From UHGV virus genome UHGV-0258254: 10,034 nucleotides of DNA. One strand, written 5' to 3'. The stretch is from a virus. The position numbers and the translations under genes were made by a program. The notes under the pieces were generated by a model, which ran no database searches, was not told the DNA's origin, and saw only the letters and a list, made by a program, of their open reading frames with translations. Shown here in pieces: positions 165-9,927 of the stretch; the first letter of the stretch is position 1, and each line of letters opens with the position of its first letter.

Positions 165-442
165 GCCAGCTCAGCCGCCGCCGTGCTGATGACCGCCGCC
201 TCAAGCGGAAAGCTGGACAAACTGACCGCTGCGTTTAAAGCCTCAGACGGGAAGACCGCCGAGCTGGTAAATATCATGCAGGACAACCTCGGCGGCGACT
301 TTAAGGAGTTTCAGTCCGCTTATGAGGCGGTGGGGACTGACCTGTTTGACCAGCAGGAAGGCGCACTGCGTAAGCTCACGCAGACGGTCACAAAGTATGT
401 GTTAAAACTCGACGGCTGGATCCAGAAAAACAAATCACTGGC
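164..442. repeat. Inverted repeat copy B1 (279 bp) of tape-measure internal sequence; partner 849-1127 in opposite orientation, about 98 percent identical
   Basis: The plus strand at 164-442 is the reverse complement of 849-1127 with about 4 mismatches. The plus-strand translation gives SSAAAVLMTAASSGKLDKL...DGWIQKNKSLA, the same peptide the minus-strand T gene encodes at 849-1127 (with S/T and V/A substitutions). Confidence 0.85.
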
Positions 443-2452
443 TTTGACCGGGGCAATCAGGTTTTTAAACCACTGCCACGCGGCCTGTAACTTTTCACCC
501 AGCCAGTCAAACAGCGGCTTAAGTGGCGTGAACAGCTCCCCCACCGGCGCAAATGCCGCTTTCAGCCCTTCCACCACACCGCCAAAGAATGCGCTGACAG
601 GCTCCCAGTATTTACGGATAAGCAACGCCCCGGCGACAATTGCAGCCACCACGGCCACAACCGGCCAGCTAATCGCCCCGATGGCGGTCATAACAGCACT
701 GCCAACCGTCGTGAAGATTGCCCCCATTGCGCCTGCTGCCGCGATGATGGCATTGATGCCGGTGATAACCGGCCAGGCTACAAGACCAATGGCACCGATG
801 ACACCAATCAGCGCCAGTGCACCACCGACAATGAGGCCGATGGTTGATGCCAGTGATTTGTTTTTCTGGATCCAGCCGTCGAGTTTTAACACATACTTTG
901 TGGCCGTCTGCGTGAGCTTACGCAGCGCGCCTTCCTGCTGGTCAAACAGGTCAGTCCCCACCGCCTCATAAGCGGACTGAAACTCTTTAAAGTCACCGCC
1001 TAGGTTGTCCTGCATGATATTTACCAGCTCGGCGGTCTTCCCGTCTGAGGCTTTAAACGCAGCGGTCAGTTTGTCCAGCTTTCCGGTTGAGGCGGCAGTC
1101 ATCAGCACGGCGGCGGCTGAGCTGGCCTCCTCCCCGAAAATAGTTTTCATGTATTCAGCCTGCTGGGCAGTACCGAGCCGGTTTTTCTCAAAACTGGCCT
1201 GCATTTCTTTCAGAATGGTAAATATTGGCCGGGTGTTTCCCTTGCTGTCTGAGGTTTTCACACCAAGCTCTTTGAGTGCATCCCATGCTTTTCCCGTCGG
1301 TGCCTGCAGGCGGCTTAACACGGCACGGCTTCCCGTCCCCGCCATTGAGCCTGTGATTTTTGCATCATGCAGCGCCCCGACCATTGCGGCGGTTTCTTCA
1401 ATGCTGACACCGGCATTTTTTGCCACAGGTGCGGCATAGGTCAGCGCATCGCTCATGCCGTCAAAATCGGCGGCGGTTTTGTTCATCGTCATGGAGAGAA
1501 CATCCCCGATATGAGCGACCTTATCGTTTGAAAGCTGAAAGGCGGATTTCATCCCCATCAGCAGGGCGGCGTTTTCTTCCATCGTGCGGCGGTTCGCCAG
1601 CGCCATATTCAGCGTGACCGGCGTTGCCGCCTGAATGGCATCAACATCCCCACCCGCTTTCGCGATGATTATCTGTGCACCGGCCGCATCATCCGCCGAG
1701 GCGGCGGTATTGTCGCCGAGCTGGCGCGCCTGTTTGCGTAGTGCGGTCATTTCGGCGGAGTCTTTTGCCACTCCGAGCACGGCCTGCAATTCTGAGTTTT
1801 TCTGCGCAAACTCATAACCGGGCATCAGCAACTTAACTCCGGCCATCGTTCCCGCCGCCGCAATCCCCACACCGGCAGCGCCCACTGAGGCCATATTTCC
1901 GGCCAGTTCCTTGCCTGCCTGATAACGCTGTTTTACTGCGTTAAGTTTTGCCTGTTGCGCACTGACACGCGCCAGCGCGTCACGCTGACGGTTAAGCTGT
2001 GCGGTGGTTTCACTGATACGGTTTTTCAGTCCCTGCTCATCATGTGCAAGATTGCGGGTATTAATTCCCACAACGGCCAGTTCCCGCTGCTGGCGTTTAA
2101 CGGAATCCGTCAGGCGGTTATATTTCGCCTGTAAGTCCTCCGCCGCACGCTTTGCGGATTCCAGCACTTTCGCCTGAGCACGTGTCGGACGTTCGGTGTT
2201 TTTAAACTGTGTGGCAAGGGCTTCGGCCTCCTGCCGTGCCTTTTCAAGTGCATGACCAGTCACGGCGAGCTGTGCACTGGTCTTGCGAAATCCCTCAATA
2301 CGGGATGCCTGACCGTTCAGCTCACGCAGTGATTTTTGTGTTTCCCGGATATCCCCCGACAGCGATTTGCTCGCTGTGCGGATGGATTTAAACGGGCGGG
2401 ATGCCTGGTCAACAGCCCTGAGCAATACCTGTAATTTTACATTGTTACTCAT
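320..2452 (-). CDS. T: Phage tail tape measure protein (P2 gpT-like); 3' end disrupted by rearrangement, C-terminal ~40 codons (320-442) are antisense of an inverted T fragment
   Basis: 710-aa ORF immediately downstream of E/E' with its start overlapping the E' stop. It has a long coiled-coil-like Q/A/R/L-rich N-terminal region and a Gly/Ala/Ile-rich hydrophobic segment typical of tape measure proteins. Its position after the frameshifted chaperone pair matches P2 order. The region below 442 is not authentic T sequence. Confidence 0.8.
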   Translation of the reverse strand: MSNNVKLQVLLRAVDQASRPFKSIRTASKSLSGDIRETQKSLRELNGQASRIEGFRKTSAQLAVTGHALEKARQEAEALATQFKNTERPTRAQAKVLESAKRAAEDLQAKYNRLTDSVKRQQRELAVVGINTRNLAHDEQGLKNRISETTAQLNRQRDALARVSAQQAKLNAVKQRYQAGKELAGNMASVGAAGVGIAAAGTMAGVKLLMPGYEFAQKNSELQAVLGVAKDSAEMTALRKQARQLGDNTAASADDAAGAQIIIAKAGGDVDAIQAATPVTLNMALANRRTMEENAALLMGMKSAFQLSNDKVAHIGDVLSMTMNKTAADFDGMSDALTYAAPVAKNAGVSIEETAAMVGALHDAKITGSMAGTGSRAVLSRLQAPTGKAWDALKELGVKTSDSKGNTRPIFTILKEMQASFEKNRLGTAQQAEYMKTIFGEEASSAAAVLMTAASTGKLDKLTAAFKASDGKTAELVNIMQDNLGGDFKEFQSAYEAVGTDLFDQQEGALRKLTQTATKYVLKLDGWIQKNKSLASTIGLIVGGALALIGVIGAIGLVAWPVITGINAIIAAAGAMGAIFTTVGSAVMTAIGAISWPVVAVVAAIVAGALLIRKYWEPVSAFFGGVVEGLKAAFAPVGELFTPLKPLFDWLGEKLQAAWQWFKNLIAPVKASDLFFWIQPSSFNTYFVTVCVSLRSAPSCWSNRSVPTAS

Positions 2453-2872
2453 TCGTGTTTCCGCTTCGCCGGAGCGCCTTTTCGCGCCATGTGATGAGTT
2501 CGGTCAGGCTCATGGGATACAGTTCTGATGGCGGCCAGTGAAATATCACTGCCACATCCGCCATCAGGTCATCGACCGAGAGATTTTTCGGAAACGTCAC
2601 TGCACCGAGTTCGGCGACAAAAAACCGACCACCTTACCGGCCAGCGCCACAAGGTCAGGCAGTTCCAGCGCGGCGACCTCCTGCTCGGTCAGCATCGGCG
2701 CCGTCATGCGCGGCAGCACTTTAATCAGTGCATCGACTTCGGAGTTCGCGACCGCTGCCAGACTGACACCGCGCAGCGTCCCGGCATTGGGTTTCATCAG
2801 CGTGACCTGTTCGATAACCTGCTCACCACGTTTGACCGGATTTTCCAGGGTAATGACATTTTCTTTATTCAT
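2445..2872 (-). CDS. Tail assembly chaperone gpE+E', product of programmed -1 ribosomal frameshift (predicted 142 aa)
   Basis: I translated the -1 frame by hand from the slippery site: VAELGAVTFPKNLSVDDLMADVAVIFHWPPSELYPMSLTELITWREKALRRSGNTNE, ending at TAA 2445-2447, which overlaps the T start (ATG 2450-2452). 85 + 57 = 142 aa, the size I recall for P2 E+E'. Confidence 0.8.
2597..2872 (-). CDS. E: Tail assembly chaperone gpE (91 aa)
   Basis: 91-aa ORF between tail tube FII and tape measure T, ending GFLSPNSVQ with an in-frame T TTT TTG slippery heptamer. Size and position match P2 gpE. Confidence 0.88.
   Translation of the reverse strand: MNKENVITLENPVKRGEQVIEQVTLMKPNAGTLRGVSLAAVANSEVDALIKVLPRMTAPMLTEQEVAALELPDLVALAGKVVGFLSPNSVQ
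2618..2624 (-). other. -1 programmed frameshift slippery heptamer T TTT TTG (X XXY YYZ) in gene E
   Basis: Minus-strand codons are ggT TTT TTG (G83 F84 L85 of E); the plus strand reads caaaaaa at 2618-2624. Confidence 0.8.
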
Positions 2873-2928: not shown

Positions 2929-3447
2929 TCACAGGCCGATATTACGGCGGTGTTGCTCCAGCCGGTCGACGCCGTTCACCTTCTCAATCATGTTGATGGT
3001 GTCGATTTCGACCAGCTCCTTACCGTCCATCGTCAGCCGGAAATAGGTGCAGACCACGGAGATTTTCGACTCGGTGTCTTCTCCCTGTTTCCCCTCGCCG
3101 GTGTCGATTTCTTTCTGACGTCCACGCATGACCACTTCGACGGCCACCGTTTCGCCGGTATCGTCACGCTGGTAAGAGCCTGCAAAACGAATCGGCACAG
3201 CATCCACACCGGTTGCGGCGTAAAGCTCCCAGATAACCGAATCCGGGAAGCCACCGAGTGACCACTCCATTGACAGCGCATCGTCATCAAGGCCGAGGTC
3301 TACCGGTGCGCTGCCGTTCATCCCCGCACCGCGATAGTTTTCGAGCTTACGGGTCAGTTTTGGTAGCGTGACGGACTTCGCGACGCCCTGATAGCTGTAG
3401 CCGTTCAGAAAGACGTTCATTAACTTGAGTTTGCGCGGCATTGCCAT
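2929..3447 (-). CDS. FII: Tail tube protein (P2 gpFII-like), 172 aa
   Basis: 172-aa ORF directly downstream of the sheath gene. The sequence MAMPRKLKLMNVFLNGYSYQGVAKSVTLPKL... and its size match what I recall of P2 FII. The sheath-tube-E/E'-T order is conserved. Confidence 0.9.
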   Translation of the reverse strand: MAMPRKLKLMNVFLNGYSYQGVAKSVTLPKLTRKLENYRGAGMNGSAPVDLGLDDDALSMEWSLGGFPDSVIWELYAATGVDAVPIRFAGSYQRDDTGETVAVEVVMRGRQKEIDTGEGKQGEDTESKISVVCTYFRLTMDGKELVEIDTINMIEKVNGVDRLEQHRRNIGL

Positions 3448-3459
3448 CGGTCAGGCTCC

Positions 3460-4650
3460 TTAATTGCTGTTAACCGAGGTGACCAGATTTGCCAGGTATT
3501 TATCGGTAATACGCTGGCGCAGGGTCAGGTTTTCAAGAGGAGGCACCGGGGTATAGTCGTAGTCGATATACAGTTTTCCGGCCTTAAGGGTTTCCGCATC
3601 GTTGGATTCTTCGCTGAACCAGCAGGTCGCATCCACGATATAGCCGTTTGTTTTCAGCTCACGGAATTTGGCATTGATGCCGTCAACGATGTCGCGAATC
3701 AGCGTTGCGGTGATGGGCTTGTCCACCGCCCACATGTGCGCCTCAGCCATCGTGTCGGCCAGCACCTGCGCGGTGCGGGTGTAGTTTTCAAAGAGGAACA
3801 GCGGGTCATCAGAGCAGGTACGGTTACCCCAGAATCGGAAACCGTCGCGGCGAATCAGCGTAGTGACGCCTGACTCGTTAAGCAGGTCAGCATCGGTGCC
3901 GGACTCCTGCAAATCCCAGAATACAGATGCGCTGATGCCGGTAACACCGTTCACCCCGACATTGGACAGCGTTTTATGCCAGCCCTGCTCCTGGTCGATT
4001 CTGGCACGCAGACCCAGCGCACGGGCGGTGGCATACGCGGTGGCGGTGGTGCTGGTGACCGTATCCCATGCGAGGAAATCCGGCCAGATGACCATCAGCT
4101 CACGCTGGCTGAAATTCTGGCGGTAGGCTTTCACCTCGGAAATGGTTTTACAGCCCCATGCGCTGATATACCCGAAAGCGCGCAGCTTCTGACAGACTGA
4201 TGCCAGTGCTACAGCCACCTCTTTGGTATCCAGTCCCGGCACACCAAGAATACGCGGTTTAACACCGGTTACCGACTCCGCCGCCAGCAGGGCTTTCAGT
4301 CCGGTGTACTGACCGTTTTCGTCAGTGGTGCCGATGATATTGGAAACGGTCTGCGCAAGTTTCGTTTCTTCGTCGTCGCCGGTGCCGTCCTCCACGCGCA
4401 CAACAACGGTGACCGGTTTTGACTGGTCGGCGATAGCCTGCAACGATGCCGCCAGCGTGCCTTTTTTACCGGCCTTTGCAATTGCGCTCTGCACATTGGT
4501 AATCAGCACCGGTTTATTGAGGGGGAAGGTTTCCGCATCCGCATCGCTGGCCGTGCAGACCATGCCAACAATGGCAGTGGATACGGTGGAAATGACGCGG
4601 GTGCCGTCGTTAATCTCCAGCACCTGCACGCCGTGATGATAGTCACTCAT
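3460..4650 (-). CDS. FI: Contractile tail sheath protein (P2 gpFI-like), 396 aa
   Basis: 396-aa ORF matching the size of P2 FI, upstream of the tube gene. A GGAG ribosome-binding site sits about 9 nt upstream of the ATG on the minus strand. Confidence 0.9.
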   Translation of the reverse strand: MSDYHHGVQVLEINDGTRVISTVSTAIVGMVCTASDADAETFPLNKPVLITNVQSAIAKAGKKGTLAASLQAIADQSKPVTVVVRVEDGTGDDEETKLAQTVSNIIGTTDENGQYTGLKALLAAESVTGVKPRILGVPGLDTKEVAVALASVCQKLRAFGYISAWGCKTISEVKAYRQNFSQRELMVIWPDFLAWDTVTSTTATAYATARALGLRARIDQEQGWHKTLSNVGVNGVTGISASVFWDLQESGTDADLLNESGVTTLIRRDGFRFWGNRTCSDDPLFLFENYTRTAQVLADTMAEAHMWAVDKPITATLIRDIVDGINAKFRELKTNGYIVDATCWFSEESNDAETLKAGKLYIDYDYTPVPPLENLTLRQRITDKYLANLVTSVNSN

Positions 4651-4709
4651 CCGTTTAACTCCGTGGTTAATGGGTGAGTGGTATTTTCAGTTGTGCCGGA
4701 GATGTCAGG

Positions 4710-5303
4710 CTATTTGTCCCGGTTGGCTAAGGGATGACACAATTTATTCTTTGTCGCTGATGAGGGGAATTTCTTATAGAGCGTGGACAGGCCAATATCA
4801 AAAATCAGCGCCACGCGTTGACGAGATTCCCCCGCAGCCAGCAACCGTCCGACCTGCTCCCACTCACTCGCGGTGAGTTTCGGACGTCTGCCACCAATAC
4901 GACCTTTGGCTCTGGCCGCTTCCAGTCCGGCGCGTGTCCGCTCGACAATGAGTTCTCGCTCCATTTCAGCCAGGGCACCCATCACATGAAAGAAAAAACG
5001 CCCCATCGGCGTGCTGGTATCAATAGCATCCGTCAGACTGCGAAAATTAACGCCGCGTTCGCGCAGTTCCTCAACCAGAATGACCAGATGCCGCATACTA
5101 CGCCCCAGCCTGTCCAGCTTCCAGACTACCAGAGTGTCACCTGCTGATAATGTTCTGAGCAGTTTTTTCAGTCCCGGTCTGTCGGACTTCGTGCCGCTGA
5201 TTTTATCCTCAAAAATCCGCTCGCATCCTGCGCACTCCAGCGCGTTACGCTGCAATTCCGTGTTCTGGTCATTTGTTGACACGCGTACATAGCCAATAAG
5301 CAT
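4710..5303 (-). CDS. Site-specific DNA invertase, serine recombinase of the Hin/Gin/Pin/Cin/Min family (about 197 aa; likely start at the second in-frame Met, MLIGYVRVST)
   Basis: The N-terminus MLIGYVRVSTNDQNTELQRNAL carries the catalytic Ser motif. VVWKLDRLGRS, SPMGRFFFHVMGALAEMERELIVERT and the C-terminal HTH ending STLYKKFPSS are near-identical to what I recall of Gin and Hin. It lies next to a crossover site. The ORF track extends it two codons further upstream, to 5309. Confidence 0.93.
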   Translation of the reverse strand: MLIGYVRVSTNDQNTELQRNALECAGCERIFEDKISGTKSDRPGLKKLLRTLSAGDTLVVWKLDRLGRSMRHLVILVEELRERGVNFRSLTDAIDTSTPMGRFFFHVMGALAEMERELIVERTRAGLEAARAKGRIGGRRPKLTASEWEQVGRLLAAGESRQRVALIFDIGLSTLYKKFPSSATKNKLCHPLANRDK

Positions 5304-5358
5304 GAGCATCCCCCTGAATAAAAACCGGAGATGATGCCAGTTGCCCGTTATCTCTGCA

Positions 5359-5384
5359 TTTTCATAAACGTTGGTTTAGGAGAA
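5359..5384. other. Invertase crossover site 1 (hix/gix-like 26-bp site), plus strand ttttcataaacgTTggtttaggagaa
   Basis: Its reverse complement TTCTCCTAAACC-AA-CGTTTATGAAAA fits the Hin/Gin half-site pattern TTnTCnnAAACC flanking a central AA dinucleotide. It is in inverted orientation to the site at 7227-7252. The inner half ggtttaggagaa matches the inner half of site 2 at 11 of 12 positions. Confidence 0.75.
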
Positions 5385-5882
5385 GGCTCAGCATTGCCTG
5401 TTGGCGTACCTGTTCCGTGGCCCTCAGCCACTCCGCCAACAGGCTGGCTAAAATGCAACGGAGCAGCTTTTTCTGCTGAAGAATACCCAGAACTGGCAAA
5501 GGCTTACCCGACAAATAAATTGCCTGATTTACGTGGTGAGTTTATTCGTGGCTGGGATGACGGACGTGGTATGGATACGGGGAGGGCAATATTATCAGCT
5601 CAGGGCGATGCCATACGTAATATCTATGGTGAGTTCAAGACTGTAAACACCGAAAATTATTCAATATGGGAATCAGTAGGCTCGTTTAAGGGGGCAGTGG
5701 TGCCTTTGAATCCCTCAACGAACAATAGTTATTTCTCCTTAATCAGAAGTATGGTGACTGAAAGAACAGATGGCGCTGTTTACCCAAAAGTGATTGGTCT
5801 TGATGCTTCAAGAATTGTTCCAACTGCAAACGAAAACCGTCCTCGTAACATTGCCTTTAATTATATCGTGAGAGCTGCCTGA
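5385..5882 (+). CDS. Silent alternative tail-fibre C-terminal cassette (about 165 codons, no own start; expressed only after inversion fuses it to the constant N-terminal part of H)
   Basis: The frame is continuous through the crossover site (…NVGLGE|GSALPVGV…) and has the same phase as the LGLGE codons at the site inside H. It encodes a receptor-binding tail-collar-like domain (PWPSATPPTGWLKCNGAAFSAEEYPELAKAYP…LPDLRGEFIRGWDDGRG). The ATG at 5331 in the ORF track lies outside the segment and is probably fortuitous. Confidence 0.7.
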   Translation, partial: GSALPVGVPVPWPSATPPTGWLKCNGAAFSAEEYPELAKAYPTNKLPDLRGEFIRGWDDGRGMDTGRAILSAQGDAIRNIYGEFKTVNTENYSIWESVGSFKGAVVPLNPSTNNSYFSLIRSMVTERTDGAVYPKVIGLDASRIVPTANENRPRNIAFNYIVRAA

Positions 5883-6484
5883 TGAATAAAGCCGTATTAA
5901 ATAACGAACTCATTGCCATAAAAGCGGGAGACATTACCATTTATAATTATGATGGTGAAACGCGGGAATATATTTCCACATCAACTGAATATCTTGCGGT
6001 TGGCGTCGGTATCCCGGCATGTTCTTGTTTAGATGCACCAGTTACACATAAAGCTGGTTATGCAATCTGCCGTTCTGCAGATTTTAACTCATGGGAATAT
6101 GTGCCAGACCATCGCGGTGAAGTTGTCTATAACACCGAAACGGGAGAATCAAAAGAAATCACAGCTCCGGGTGATTACCCTGAAAATACAACCACTATCG
6201 TCCCGTTAACGCCATACGATAAATGGGATGGTGAGAAATGGGTGACAGATACTGAGGCACAGCATAGTGCCGCAGTAGACGCGGCAGAAGCACAGCGCCA
6301 GTCACTGATTGATGCAGCAATGGCTTCCATCAGTCTGATTCAGCTGAAATTGCAGGCCGCACGTAAACTGACGCAGGCAGAAACAACCAGACTTAACGCC
6401 GTGCTGGATTACATTGACGCGGTGACGGCAACAGATACCAGCACCGCGCAGGATGTCATCTGGCCTGAACTGCCGGAGGCGTAG
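5882..6484 (+). CDS. Tail fibre assembly chaperone (Tfa/gpG/Mu U-like), cognate to the silent fibre cassette, 200 aa
   Basis: Its start overlaps the stop of the upstream cassette (ATGA). The C-terminal motif LNAVLDYIDAVTATDTSTAQDVIWPELP is the conserved Tfa C-terminal signature, and the gene sits directly after a fibre C-terminus. Confidence 0.75.
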   Translation: MNKAVLNNELIAIKAGDITIYNYDGETREYISTSTEYLAVGVGIPACSCLDAPVTHKAGYAICRSADFNSWEYVPDHRGEVVYNTETGESKEITAPGDYPENTTTIVPLTPYDKWDGEKWVTDTEAQHSAAVDAAEAQRQSLIDAAMASISLIQLKLQAARKLTQAETTRLNAVLDYIDAVTATDTSTAQDVIWPELPEA

Positions 6485-6875
6485 GCCATTCAATATCTGG
6501 AGCACTGGAGGTATCAACCAGTTCCAGTGCGTCCAGATAATCCAGCCACAAATTATATTGCGCCAGTTCCTCACCTTTCAGACGACCAATAGCCGCTTTA
6601 CCAGGCCATTGCCTGCTGTTCATGTGCTCGTTGGCTTCATTAATAAGTTTTCCTTTTTTCAACTCTGCCAATGCAATAAGGTTTTCTTTTGATAAAGGTG
6701 GTTGCTCTGTCAAAACCGGATATCCCTCCTGATTGCTGACTATTTTCATGCCATTATCCTGACCATCCAGTAGTGACAGCCATTCATCCGTGGTTATCTC
6801 AACAGCATCTGAAGGTGCTTTATTTAAATCGGTAAAAAAACCATTTTCTTTTTGTGAATAGAAGTATCTGTCCAT
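6456..6875 (-). CDS. Tail fibre assembly chaperone (Tfa/gpG-like), cognate to the currently expressed fibre, 139 aa
   Basis: It lies immediately downstream of the fibre gene on the minus strand. The C-terminal motif NLWLDYLDALELVDTSSAPDIEWPTPP is the Tfa signature. Its 3' end overlaps the alternative Tfa convergently at 6456-6484. Confidence 0.8.
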   Translation of the reverse strand: MDRYFYSQKENGFFTDLNKAPSDAVEITTDEWLSLLDGQDNGMKIVSNQEGYPVLTEQPPLSKENLIALAELKKGKLINEANEHMNSRQWPGKAAIGRLKGEELAQYNLWLDYLDALELVDTSSAPDIEWPTPPAVQAR

Positions 6876-6878
6876 TTA

Positions 6879-8066
6879 TCAATCTCCAAAAGCAATCCAG
6901 TAAGCAAAAGGATTTATTCCTTGCTCAGTCACAGATGACATCAGGGAAAATTGCGATGGTGAAACAGGTAATGCTGCAAAACTAACCATTGTTGACACAC
7001 CTGACCGTGCATTATCGTACGATGCAACAACACAATAATTGGTATTGCTGAAAGATATCGGCAGGGTGATATTTACAGGTGAGCCTAATGGCCCTGATGC
7101 TGATATTCCCATTTGAATGATGGTTCCATCAGGCAATTTTCTCCAGCGATTAGAACTCGGATTTCTTTTCCAGGATGACATATCCGGTATCTGATTTTCT
7201 CCTGTGCCCACATCCCTTTTCGCCGCTTCTCCCAAACCAAGGTATGCGAGAAGACCAGCTACATCCTTTCCACTCAAATGAGTCAGCGTCTCATCCAGTG
7301 GCTGCTTACCTGACAGCGCATTGTTAATGGTGGCGCTGAATTTCGGGTCATTGTTGATAGCTGCGGCAATTTCTTTCAGTGTGTCCAGCGTGTCAGGGGC
7401 ACCGTTAATCAGAGCGGTAATAGCGGCCTGTACAAACGCAGTGGTCGCAATCCGCGTGGTGTTATTTCCTGCGGCAGGCGTCGGCGCTTTTGGCTCTCCG
7501 GTAAATGTCGGATTATGTTTCTGTGCATACTGGGTATGAGGGTCCTGTGCGGCAATGTGGTTTCTCATCTGGTCATCCACATACAGCCTTAATTCCAGGA
7601 CTTCATCATCCACGTATTTACGGGTCGCCAGTACCACCGACGGGTCGATTTTCAGCGTAATAGCTTCGGTATTCGTGACAACCAGAATCATGCGGATAGT
7701 CTGGGTACGACCGCTGCCTTCCTGCAACTGCGGTTTGTACGTTTCCGGGCAGTTCGCCACCGCAATGAGTACGCCTTCATCATCATAAAGCCCAATCTCA
7801 CGGATCCAGAATCCGCCCTCGTTCTCAGGGATGATTTGCTCCGCAATAATCTGGCTCTGGTTGTTCGGGTCAACACTCAGAAGATTCAGCGGCGCGATAC
7901 GTTTCTGGTTAATCAGTTTTGTCTGTGCCGGGTCTGGTGTCGGCAAGACACCATTCGCATCACCAACGGCCATTTGCGTCAGATTCAGCTTACTGCCGAG
8001 CATCGTCGCGTTAGCCAGCCGTGCTGCGCCCTGATTAGTCAGAATGGCGTAGTATTTCACTGTCAT
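6879..8066 (-). CDS. H: Tail fibre protein (P2 gpH-like N-terminal constant region fused to the currently in-phase variable C-terminal cassette), 395 aa
   Basis: The N-terminus MTVKYYAILTNQGAARLANA…MAVGDANG…GGFWIREIGLYDDEGVLIAVAN…GSGRTQTIRM resembles the P2 H / Mu S fibre N-terminal domain, and TAFVQAAITALINGAPDTLDTLKEIAAAINNDPKF is a conserved fibre motif. The crossover site lies within the codons for LAYLGLGE (about residue 280). The gene sits downstream of I, as in P2. Confidence 0.85.
   Translation of the reverse strand: MTVKYYAILTNQGAARLANATMLGSKLNLTQMAVGDANGVLPTPDPAQTKLINQKRIAPLNLLSVDPNNQSQIIAEQIIPENEGGFWIREIGLYDDEGVLIAVANCPETYKPQLQEGSGRTQTIRMILVVTNTEAITLKIDPSVVLATRKYVDDEVLELRLYVDDQMRNHIAAQDPHTQYAQKHNPTFTGEPKAPTPAAGNNTTRIATTAFVQAAITALINGAPDTLDTLKEIAAAINNDPKFSATINNALSGKQPLDETLTHLSGKDVAGLLAYLGLGEAAKRDVGTGENQIPDMSSWKRNPSSNRWRKLPDGTIIQMGISASGPLGSPVNITLPISFSNTNYCVVASYDNARSGVSTMVSFAALPVSPSQFSLMSSVTEQGINPFAYWIAFGD
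7227..7252. other. Invertase crossover site 2 (hix/gix-like), plus strand TTCTCCCAAACC-AA-GGTATGCGAGAA, inside the tail fibre gene
   Basis: The left half TTCTCCCAAACC fits the Hin/Gin half-site pattern and the core is AA. It matches the reverse complement of site 1 at about 20 of 26 positions. Both sites encode G-L-G-E in the same phase. Confidence 0.75.
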
Positions 8067-8674
8067 GCGTTTACTCTCAGGTTATCAATTAAATGAATGG
8101 CCGAGGCCGGGAAATAATCCCCTCCGACAATAATGGCCTCCGGGGTGTAGGGATAAACCGTCAGGGCGTCGCCGTGATAGCATCCCGCACCGGCAAAAAT
8201 GTTGCCGGTTGTACTTAAACTGATAGCCAGTCCCGTCAGATGGCGGCTTGCAGGTTTTGCATCAGCAACGAGACGCTCCAGCTCCTGATACATTTCCTCG
8301 GTAATACCCTGCTCAAGCACGCCAACAACGATGCGGAACGTCCCCGGCTCCTCGTTGAGCTGCCACCACTCCCTCACCTCAATCAGATAGCCGAGCGGCT
8401 CCACCACACGGCGAATCGCACCAATAGTGCCCTTATGGCAGTGAATGAAATACGCATCGCGGATAACAGCGCGTTTTGTCGCTTCCGGCCACTTATCATC
8501 CCAGCGGTCAACCGAAAATGACCACGCCAGCCACGGCAGCAGATTTGCCGGGCAGGTGTCCGGGTTCCACAGCTCACGAATACTGACCGGCGTTTTTTCA
8601 ATTTCCGCACAGGCTTTTGCGGCGGCGACTTCAAGCGGTGATGAGCCGGTCGGCAGCAGTCGCGAATCACTCAT
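8063..8674 (-). CDS. I: Baseplate wedge / tail protein (P2 gpI-like), 203 aa
   Basis: It sits between J and H as in P2. Its start overlaps the J stop by 8 nt and its stop overlaps the H start (ATGA). The sequence MSDSRLLPTGSSPLEVAAAKA… is recognisable as gpI-like. Confidence 0.85.
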   Translation of the reverse strand: MSDSRLLPTGSSPLEVAAAKACAEIEKTPVSIRELWNPDTCPANLLPWLAWSFSVDRWDDKWPEATKRAVIRDAYFIHCHKGTIGAIRRVVEPLGYLIEVREWWQLNEEPGTFRIVVGVLEQGITEEMYQELERLVADAKPASRHLTGLAISLSTTGNIFAGAGCYHGDALTVYPYTPEAIIVGGDYFPASAIHLIDNLRVNA

Positions 8675-9575
8675 CCGAGCCTCCGGTCACGACGCTGTAT
8701 TCGGTGCAGAAAGACGCCTGCGTACTGTTGAGCACAATGTCGGCCAGTGGTGCGGCCAGCTCGACACGCTGCACGCCTTCCACATGCAAAGCGGCATAAA
8801 TGGCAGACAGACGGATGTCGCGCCCCAGCCGGTGCTGTGCCGTGATATACGCTTCCAGTTTTTTCACGGCGGCAGCGCGGATGGGTTCGCTTTCGGGACC
8901 AGGGTAAAGATACAGCGTGGCGTTTATCTGGTATTCAACGATGGCGGCAGACTGCACGGTCACGCGGTCGGCCACCGGCCTGACGTCCTCGCCATTAAGG
9001 GCGTTACGCACCACGGCCAGCAGGTCTTCGGATGCGACGCCGTTATTTTCACGTGACAGCACAGAGATGGTGACACAGGCAGGAGACGGGCTGGTGACAG
9101 AGATATCCGCGACACGCCCGTCGGCACTGCGACCATGATACTGATAGGCACCCACCGACCCGGCGACGCTTAAGCCCTCAAACGCCTGCTGAATACGCAG
9201 ACGATAATCGGTGTCAGACTCCATCACTGCCGGTGTCGGCGGGATAGTCGAATCATCTGCCGGGGTGATAATCAGGCGCGTGGTGTTGTAATTGGCACCA
9301 ATCACATCAAGGTCATTACCGGCAGCACAGGCCAGCATCACCGCCCGTGCAGCCTCATTCACACGCTGACGCCAGATAAGCTCACGATAAGCATTTTCCT
9401 CCAGCAGTTTGACGAGAGGCTCAGATTCCAGCGTCAGGGTACGGGCGACCGCCTCCTGCTGGTCTTCCGGGTAAAGGGAAATCAGTGTCGCCTTGCGTTC
9501 AGCGAGAATGGTTTCAAAGTCCAGCTCCTCGACCACATCCGGTGCGGGTAGCTGGTTCAGGTCGATAATCGGCAT
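8667..9575 (-). CDS. J: Baseplate assembly protein (P2 gpJ-like), 302 aa
   Basis: 302 aa, the size I recall for P2 gpJ. It lies immediately downstream of W. The sequence MPIIDLNQLPAPDVVEELDFETILAERKA… is recognisable. Confidence 0.9.
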   Translation of the reverse strand: MPIIDLNQLPAPDVVEELDFETILAERKATLISLYPEDQQEAVARTLTLESEPLVKLLEENAYRELIWRQRVNEAARAVMLACAAGNDLDVIGANYNTTRLIITPADDSTIPPTPAVMESDTDYRLRIQQAFEGLSVAGSVGAYQYHGRSADGRVADISVTSPSPACVTISVLSRENNGVASEDLLAVVRNALNGEDVRPVADRVTVQSAAIVEYQINATLYLYPGPESEPIRAAAVKKLEAYITAQHRLGRDIRLSAIYAALHVEGVQRVELAAPLADIVLNSTQASFCTEYSVVTGGSDE

Positions 9576-9579
9576 GGTT

Positions 9580-9927
9580 TCAACTCACAGGGATGGTTAA
9601 CGAAAGTGGCTGGCCGGTGTCGTTGTGCTGGCCGGTTAACGTGACCGTCATTCGCCCGTCAAAGCTGCGCGCCGTGGTGACGGATGACAGGGTGACGCGG
9701 GGTTCCCATTTCAGCACCGCCATGTAACAGGCGACCTTAATCTGCAACTCAAGCGCCGGGGTCTGCGGCTGGTCAATCATTGATGCCAGCAACGAGCCGT
9801 AATCACGACGCATCACCCGTGAGCCGACCGGTGTACGCAGGATATCGCCGATACTCTGGCTGATATGCTCAAGGTCAGTGACAGTCAGGCCATCACTGCG
9901 ATTCATTCCGAGATAACGCGCTGTCAT
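9580..9927 (-). CDS. W: Baseplate assembly protein (P2 gpW-like), 115 aa
   Basis: 115 aa beginning MTARYLGMNRSDGLTVTDLEHISQSIGDILRTPVGSRVMRRDYGS…, which I recognise as P2 gpW. Its start ATG overlaps the V stop (ATGA). Confidence 0.92.
   Translation of the reverse strand: MTARYLGMNRSDGLTVTDLEHISQSIGDILRTPVGSRVMRRDYGSLLASMIDQPQTPALELQIKVACYMAVLKWEPRVTLSSVTTARSFDGRMTVTLTGQHNDTGQPLSLTIPVS

Follow-up and report, generated by a model that had tools for sequence, protein, structure and literature searches.

Inversion of DNA in P2-like prophages of E. coli was shown experimentally in 2014, and EPEC E2348/69 carries a simple two-variant locus in such a prophage, as found by sequencing and PCR (PMC4272514). 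The locus described here lies in a stretch of 10,034 nucleotides of the UHGV virus genome UHGV-0258254 (the window), and it resembles that of EPEC E2348/69 in phage type and, by the published description, in mechanism. Very likely, the tail-fibre operon of this P2-like E. coli prophage (a Peduovirus) is switched by site-specific inversion of the Pin/Gin type, an ordinary and well-known kind of phage DNA switch with a textbook mechanism that is already documented in P2-like prophages of E. coli (PMC4272514). Phage pro483, which aligns with 78% of the region at an identity of 93.5%, also has an annotated DNA invertase, as do other Peduoviruses, whereas the cassette content of the invertible loci varies from one P2-like prophage to another.

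Like in the case of the G segment of phage Mu with its invertase Gin (and also the C segment of P1 with Cin), a constant fibre part is followed by a segment with the order site, tip, tfa, tfa', tip', site, and the invertase gene, which is not part of the segment, has the same direction as the fibre gene H. A constant N-terminal fibre part and two alternative C-terminal tips, each with its own Tfa, are characteristic of the S/S' switches of Mu and P1, and all of this is found here. The invertase is 79% identical to Mu Gin, the invertase-proximal 26-bp site aligns in register with Mu gixR, and the distance from the site to the ATG of the invertase is 67 bp in Mu and 68 bp here, as measured from the site centre. 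Differences are the length of the segment (about 3 kb in Mu, 1.87 kb here), the tips, for which no similarity to S or S' of Mu was detected, and the phage itself, which is P2-like and not Mu-like.

The P segment of e14 in E. coli K-12, inverted by Pin, shares with the locus the gene order (fibre, tfa, tfa', tip', invertase), the convergent tfa genes with the same overlap of 29 bp and the 14-bp core TTGGTTTGGGAGAA, and its pin-proximal site differs from the corresponding site here by one base. The invertase is 86% identical to PinE, the 200-aa Tfa 91.5% to TfaE (dN/dS 0.16), the silent tip 57% to StfE, and the 139-aa Tfa 55% to TfaP. In contrast, e14 is a defective prophage, whereas the tail operon here is of P2 type and the N-terminal domain of its H is intact; moreover, the expressed tip is just 31% identical to StfP, and about 70 residues in the centre of the Collar tip have been exchanged for others.

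The surrounding genes form a P2-like tail module, with the gene order W-J-I-H-G / FI-FII-E-E'-T and similarity to P2. From 4730 to 439, which covers the pF promoter through T, the window shares 97% identity with P2; it also encodes Tail_P2_I and sheath domains, and its relatives carry a full P2-type late region. P2 itself was considered as a relic of this switch and rejected as such, because nothing like the crossover core is found in its gene H, with up to two mismatches allowed.

Crossover sites, fibre tips and chaperones

In the proposed mechanism (features in Table 1), dimers of the serine invertase would bind the two 26-bp sites and cut at the central TT/AA with a 2-bp stagger, one subunit pair would turn by 180 degrees, and religation would leave about 1.87 kb inverted. 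The inversion step probably requires host Fis on an enhancer within the invertase gene, at its 5' end, as homology with Gin and Hin suggests. The constant 280 residues of H would be joined to the 115-aa gp53-like tip and followed by the 139-aa Tfa in the present state, and to the 165-aa Collar-type tip and followed by the 200-aa Tfa in the flipped state. As the codon phase of the site inside H is fixed, the late operon would read the constant part of H fused to either tip, and a population of lysogens should therefore release virions with two adsorption specificities.

Table 1. Features of the invertible tail-fibre locus (positions in the window)
Feature	Position	Strand	Details
Serine DNA invertase, Gin/Pin/Cin/Hin family, 197 aa	4710..5303	-	Pfam Resolvase 8e-53 and HTH_7 5.5e-13
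Candidate Fis-bound recombinational enhancer, 5' end of invertase gene	5196..5258	-	Motifs near 5251, 5226, 5203
Invertase-proximal 26-bp crossover site	5359..5384	+	TTTTCATAAACG-TT-GGTTTAGGAGAA, central dinucleotide 5371-5372
Silent alternative H C-terminal cassette, G-L-G-E + 165 aa, Collar-type tip, read only once inverted	5373..5882	+	Pfam Collar 8e-16
Silent 200-aa tail-fibre assembly chaperone, cognate to Collar tip	5882..6484	+	Pfam Caudo_TAP 4.5e-30
Expressed 139-aa tail-fibre assembly chaperone	6456..6875	-	Pfam Caudo_TAP 2.3e-26
Expressed H tip, G-L-G-E + 115 aa, gp53-like C-terminal domain	6879..7238	-	Pfam Gp53-like_C 2.6e-12, residues 310-394
Crossover site within H	7227..7252	+	TTCTCCCAAACC-AA-GGTATGCGAGAA, central dinucleotide 7239-7240
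Constant N-terminal part of H (residues 1-276 and codon split by crossover)	7239..8066	-	Pfam Phage_tail_fib N-terminal 1.2e-62

The longest and strongest inverted repeat between 4600 and 8100 is 5359-5385 / 7226-7252 (27 nt, 78%). Exactly two copies of the 14-nt core TTGGTTTRGGAGAA are present in the whole window, in opposite orientation, with 0.07 copies expected and none of 200 shuffles reaching two, and also with up to two mismatches allowed there are only these two core sites. The two 26-bp sites are in inverted orientation and have the same central dinucleotide, the AA of the site within H being TT on the opposite strand, and at each site this TT forms positions 2-3 of the codon that precedes G-L-G-E. 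As had been claimed in the initial annotation, G-L-G-E is encoded in the same phase at both sites (5373-5384 on the plus strand, 7238-7227 on the minus strand); of the longer LAYLGLGE that had been assigned to 7227-7240, the G-L-G-E is indeed there, but this span covers just the 14-nt core (L-G-L-G-E).

At present, H is an ORF of 395 aa (6879-8066, minus strand), in which the expressed tip is continuous with the constant part, and it is followed by the ORF of the 139-aa Tfa; the plus strand has the cassette ORF (5331-5882) and the ORF of the 200-aa Tfa. The prediction of an in-frame 445-aa fibre with the 200-aa Tfa behind it was confirmed when 5372-7239 was flipped in silico: without any frameshift or stop, an uninterrupted H ORF of 280 constant and 165 new residues is formed, and the Tfa follows directly with the stop/start overlap ATGA. 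The two products have a common prefix of 280 aa, and their tips of 115 and 165 aa are unrelated, as expected, with no BLASTP similarity to each other at E<=1e-3 and with different families (gp53-like C for the expressed tip, Collar for the silent one). It may well be that the two tips differ in receptor specificity.

The silent cassette is not a decayed pseudogene: beside the Collar domain, it has PDB sequence matches to solved fibre structures (short tail fibre 9cuy, 1e-24; T4 gp37 tip 2xgf, 2.5e-16) and aligns with the C-terminal ends of PHROG tail-fibre profiles. With the low dN/dS of its Tfa, the silent genes are under purifying selection. The fold support for the tips comes from Pfam, PHROG and PDB sequence matches; AlphaFold2 single-sequence models of both tips were uninformative (mean pLDDT 34.9 and 41.4), the PDB sequence search gave no relative of the 200-aa Tfa, and NCBIfam gave no matches for the fibre and Tfa proteins. 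The two Tfa proteins, of 139 and 200 aa, were correctly described as having a C-terminal motif in common, with about 37% identity across the C-terminal 65 residues, which agrees with a published model of Tfa as a modular protein, whose N-domain is variable and binds the fibre and whose C-domain is conserved and trimerises (PMC9608196).

The cassette ORF has ATG codons of its own at 5331 and 5334, which are preceded by GGAG (5327-5330) at a poor Shine-Dalgarno spacing of 0-3 nt, and RefSeq annotates this ORF as a stand-alone 183-aa protein. It is highly unlikely that the off-phase cassette is not fully silent and that divergent transcription from the invertase leader yields a free, baseplate-less receptor-binding tip together with its Tfa; if true, these could mask receptors or exclude superinfection for the host.

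Invertase and candidate enhancer

Invertases of the Gin/Hin/Cin/Pin (Din) type have about 190 aa, an N-terminal catalytic domain with a nucleophilic Ser9/10, and a C-terminal helix-turn-helix. The protein encoded here has the features of these small serine recombinases: beside the Pfam domains, it aligns over its full length with Gin in the PDB (3uj3/4m6f, E=4e-94), matches the PHROG family phrog_125 DNA invertase (7e-101), and has the catalytic Ser9 conserved in MLIGYVRVSTNDQ. An alternative ATG is at 5309, and in NCBIfam other serine recombinases were matched, at sub-threshold scores only.

In Din systems, Fis binds a recombinational enhancer in cis, whose native place is the 5' part of the invertase gene, about 100 bp from one site. 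At the corresponding place, G-N6-W-N6-C motifs with an outer pair 48 bp apart align in position with Mu gin, and the region is about 80% identical to Mu at the nucleotide level, but this motif is degenerate (12 loose matches in 330 bp) and the conservation is confounded by coding-sequence homology. The region may be considered a candidate Fis enhancer. In Mu, Fis has three sites within the coding sequence of gin, some 550 bp upstream of where mom starts (PMC3378877). Din inversion needs Fis, HU and negative supercoiling and proceeds by a single 180-degree subunit rotation (PMC3798978, PMC3575834), and by analogy the same requirements and the same rotation may apply here. Both the Fis dependence and the switching rate of this locus are what we infer.

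Orientations in public genomes and their meaning

Both orientations occur in nature. The flipped 3451-bp sequence is found collinear and with 100% coverage in 10 complete-genome E. coli records (best 99.9%), the present orientation in three. In strains 12867 and 12089, the flanks of 2228 and 2367 bp are the same and the 1856-bp middle of one is the exact reverse complement of that of the other, while the window and strain 2018-02-2CC are 99.9% identical and differ by a clean inversion of 5371-7243. The exact 395-aa protein is encoded on 31 public contigs and the predicted 445-aa product is a real one, found verbatim on 38; both junctions of constant H with a tip are present at 100% identity in complete genomes. 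In the natural flipped relatives, the exchange point lies within the 7-bp TTGGTTT (5371-5377 / 7234-7240). Comparison of these sister genomes shows that the segment inverts in nature, with exchange at the site centre.

It is very unlikely that the locus is a frozen relic, in which the invertase or the sites have died and only the 395-aa fibre is still made. The inner half-sites are one base apart (A at 5378, G in the partner site), the outer half-sites are only loosely symmetric, and a sigma-70 and terminator scan of 4600-7300 gave no excess over shuffles and no convincing sigma-70 promoter for the invertase, all of which could be taken for decay. However, the same A/G polymorphism is present in CP159877 and CP159875, a pair that differs by a clean inversion, the ORF of the invertase is intact, keeps the catalytic Ser and has a dN/dS of 0.10 versus pinE, and the closest relative of the window over the segment (99.9%) has the opposite orientation.

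As the evidence on orientation comes from assemblies, the two states might also reflect assembly errors or RecA-dependent recombination between inverted repeats, and this is extremely unlikely: the shared core has just 14-15 bp, which is too short for assembler confusion or efficient homologous recombination, the breakpoints are precisely in the 7 bp that hold the central dinucleotide, a Gin-family invertase is encoded 68 bp away, and both states are found in many independent complete genomes. A multi-site shufflon (Min or EPEC type), in which the fibre has three or more variants, has a precedent in another EPEC P2-like prophage with three repeats and four variants (PMC4272514), but is barely conceivable here and was rejected, because only two core sites are present in the 10-kb window, even at two mismatches; there are also only two cassettes of tip and Tfa. 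No evidence was found that contradicts a two-state inversion switch.

Outside annotation, the significance of the switch is slight. The RefSeq CDSs for a 183-aa "phage tail protein" and a 133-aa "gp53-like domain-containing protein" are the off-phase cassettes of one fibre gene, and the "phage tail proteins" of 395 and 445 aa are two phases of the same allele. For phage typing or therapy that involves prophages of this kind, it would be a mistake to take the orientation found in an assembly for a fixed genotype of host range. The locus illustrates, cleanly and in nature, how a P2-like prophage hedges its bets on host range.

Inversion and its two products

The longest inverted repeat found in a search of 4600-8100 lies at 5359-5385 and 7226-7252, exactly as in the initial annotation, and it resolves into two 26-bp crossover sites (see table). 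The 14-nt core TTGGTTTRGGAGAA is present in two copies of opposite orientation (chance expectation 0.07). Both sites indeed code for G-L-G-E in one codon phase, the central TT being positions 2-3 of the preceding codon, and in silico inversion of 5372-7239 gives the identical product sequence with either base of the central dinucleotide as boundary. The predicted alternative form of the tail-fibre gene H is thereby obtained as an uninterrupted frame of 445 aa (280 shared and 165 new residues), and the gene for the 200-aa assembly chaperone (Tfa) comes after it with an ATGA stop/start overlap; in the present orientation, the 139-aa Tfa is encoded 3 bp downstream of the 395-aa H.

Both orientations occur in nature. 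The in silico inverted 3451-bp region has one collinear match with 100% coverage in 10 complete-genome records, the best with 99.9% identity, and three records carry the present orientation. An exact copy of the 395-aa protein is encoded on 31 public contigs, the predicted 445-aa protein likewise exists exactly, on 38, and both junctions of the constant part of H with a tip are present at 100% identity in complete genomes. Between strains 12867 and 12089, flanks of 2228 and 2367 bp are identical and the 1856-bp middle is exactly reverse-complemented; as a polymorphic A/G base of the inner half-site travels with the segment, the exchange is confined to TTGGTTT (5371-5377 / 7234-7240), a stretch that includes the central dinucleotide. 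Strain 2018-02-2CC has an opposite-strand match to 5371-7243 with two mismatches and still collinear flanks. When AP042551 and AP042644 are compared, strain OkiPb01691 has G in both inner half-sites, whereas its sister strain OkiPb01707, like the window, has A in the Collar-side half-site, and this single-base polymorphism is evidently tolerated.

The inversion finding is correct, but it is already known. In EPEC E2348/69, whole-genome sequencing together with PCR has demonstrated that tail-fibre segments of P2-like prophages invert in a phase-variable manner, and this strain carries a simple locus with two variants as well as a shufflon with three repeats (PMC4272514). Systematic surveys of programmed inversions list tail-fibre genes among the enriched families (PMC9881135), and sequenced Peduoviruses such as pro483 have an annotated DNA invertase at the same position.

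Genomic setting

The window is a minus-strand tail module of a P2-like E. coli prophage, with the segment and its invertase placed between FI and I, and it is 97% identical to phage P2 across 4730-439 (pF promoter through gene T). In P2, the non-essential Z/fun gene lies between G and FI, and the extra DNA occupies that place. The tip-coding stretches (5600-7200) have a G+C content of about 39-40% versus 52-60% in the P2-like backbone, which is consistent with horizontally exchanged cassettes.

Coordinates of the tail module genes, the invertase and the crossover sites
Feature	Position	Strand	Description
T	320-2452	-	tail module gene
E/E'	2445-2872	-	tail module gene
FII	2929-3447	-	tail module gene
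FI sheath	3460-4650	-	tail module gene
Invertase	4710-5303		197-aa ORF, Resolvase and HTH_7 domains
Crossover site	5359-5384		26 bp, TTTTCATAAACG-TT-GGTTTAGGAGAA
Crossover site	7227-7252		26 bp, TTCTCCCAAACC-AA-GGTATGCGAGAA
I	8063-8674	-	tail module gene
J	8667-9575	-	tail module gene
W	9580-9927	-	tail module gene

At the left end, 1-438 repeats internal tape-measure sequence in scrambled form, with 568-731 copied directly at 1-164 (96%) and 842-1127 copied in inverted orientation at 164-449 (97%). With the tape-measure gene scrambled in its 3' portion (1-1127), the T ORF is out of frame at its end, and collinearity with relatives and P2 starts only at 439. The arrangement is absent from 5426 complete E. 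coli genomes and probably reflects misassembly at a contig end or, alternatively, a private rearrangement; as the copies are not identical, a second P2-like prophage was possibly involved in the misassembly.

The invertase and its relatives in e14 and Mu

The invertase belongs to the PHROG DNA-invertase family. In a full-length alignment to the sequences of the Mu Gin crystal structures (E=4e-94) its catalytic Ser9 is kept, and the protein is 86% identical to PinE of e14 and 79% to Gin; an NCBIfam search yielded no names for it or for the fibre and Tfa proteins. By analogy to Gin and Hin (PMC3798978; PMC3575834), invertase dimers would bind each site and then form a tetramer activated by Fis and the enhancer, and phosphoserine-linked double-strand cuts with a 2-bp stagger at the site centre would be followed by one 180-degree subunit rotation and religation. 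Three Fis sites lie inside the coding region of Mu gin (PMC3378877), and three Fis-core-like motifs, at positions aligning with Mu gin, are found here in the 5' part of the invertase gene at ~5251, ~5226 and ~5203, the outer two 48 bp apart. The motif is degenerate, and this stretch is a candidate enhancer.

The last ~11 invertase codons (…LCHPLANRDK*; 4710-4742) lie in sequence almost identical to P2 at the pF late-promoter region, with the annotated activator-binding site included. The gene therefore borders on the FI operon promoter and overlaps it; the C-terminal tail is a junction product, longer than that of Gin or PinE. Between crossover site and invertase start, a terminator-like hairpin with a T run (5323-5342, minus strand), partly conserved at the equivalent place in Mu, could reduce how much transcription of the fibre operon continues into the invertase gene. 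A promoter and terminator scan performed no better than shuffles.

The Mu G segment has the identical gene order (constant S, site, Sv, U, U', S'v, site, gin), gixR aligns in register with the invertase-proximal site, and the centre of this site and the invertase ATG are 68 bp apart here and 67 bp apart in Mu. The closest relative is the e14 P segment, in which the pin-proximal site has a single-base difference from the one here, the other site has the identical 14-bp core, TfaE, StfE and TfaP are 91.5%, 57% and 55% identical to their counterparts, and tfaP and tfaE overlap by 29 bp exactly as the tfa pair does here. The Collar-type tip (5385-5879) is a mosaic relative to e14 stfE (6120-6656 in the e14 sequence compared): the initial ~90 residues and the closing RPRNIAFNYIVRAA strand match StfE almost exactly, whereas the central ~70 residues are unrelated and presumably represent a receptor-contacting insert.

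Fibre tips and chaperones

The silent cassette is without decay; its ORFs are intact, and the silent tfa has a dN/dS of 0.16 against e14 tfaE. Upstream of the crossover site, its frame is open for a further 18 codons (5327-5384), with an ATGATG start right behind GGAG, and e14 StfE has a similar leader. RefSeq lists the cassette and its flipped counterpart as separate proteins in their own right (183 or 133 aa), which most likely reflects misannotation of an off-phase cassette.

Both chaperones are Caudo_TAP proteins, and the C-terminal motif reported as shared was recovered, with the common part limited to the last ~65 residues (37% identity). This motif and the differing N-domains fit the modular Tfa model, in which the N-domain varies and binds the fibre while the C-domain is conserved and trimerises (PMC9608196). 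The 3' ends of the convergent tfa genes share 29 bp (6456-6484), leaving no space for a terminator between them, and the conserved motif yields an 18-nt inverted repeat (6403-6420 / 6529-6546).

The constant part of H has a P2-type N-terminal tail-fibre domain. The expressed tip has a gp53-like C-terminal domain (Pfam, 2.6e-12), and the silent tip has a Collar domain (8e-16). Among solved structures, the silent tip matches a short tail fibre (9cuy, 1e-24) and the tip of T4 gp37 (2xgf, 2.5e-16), and the match extends to the terminal NIAFNYIVR strand. AlphaFold models built from the single sequences had very low confidence for both tips. As had been claimed, no similarity between the tips is detectable, and their membership of unrelated families suggests different receptors for the two.
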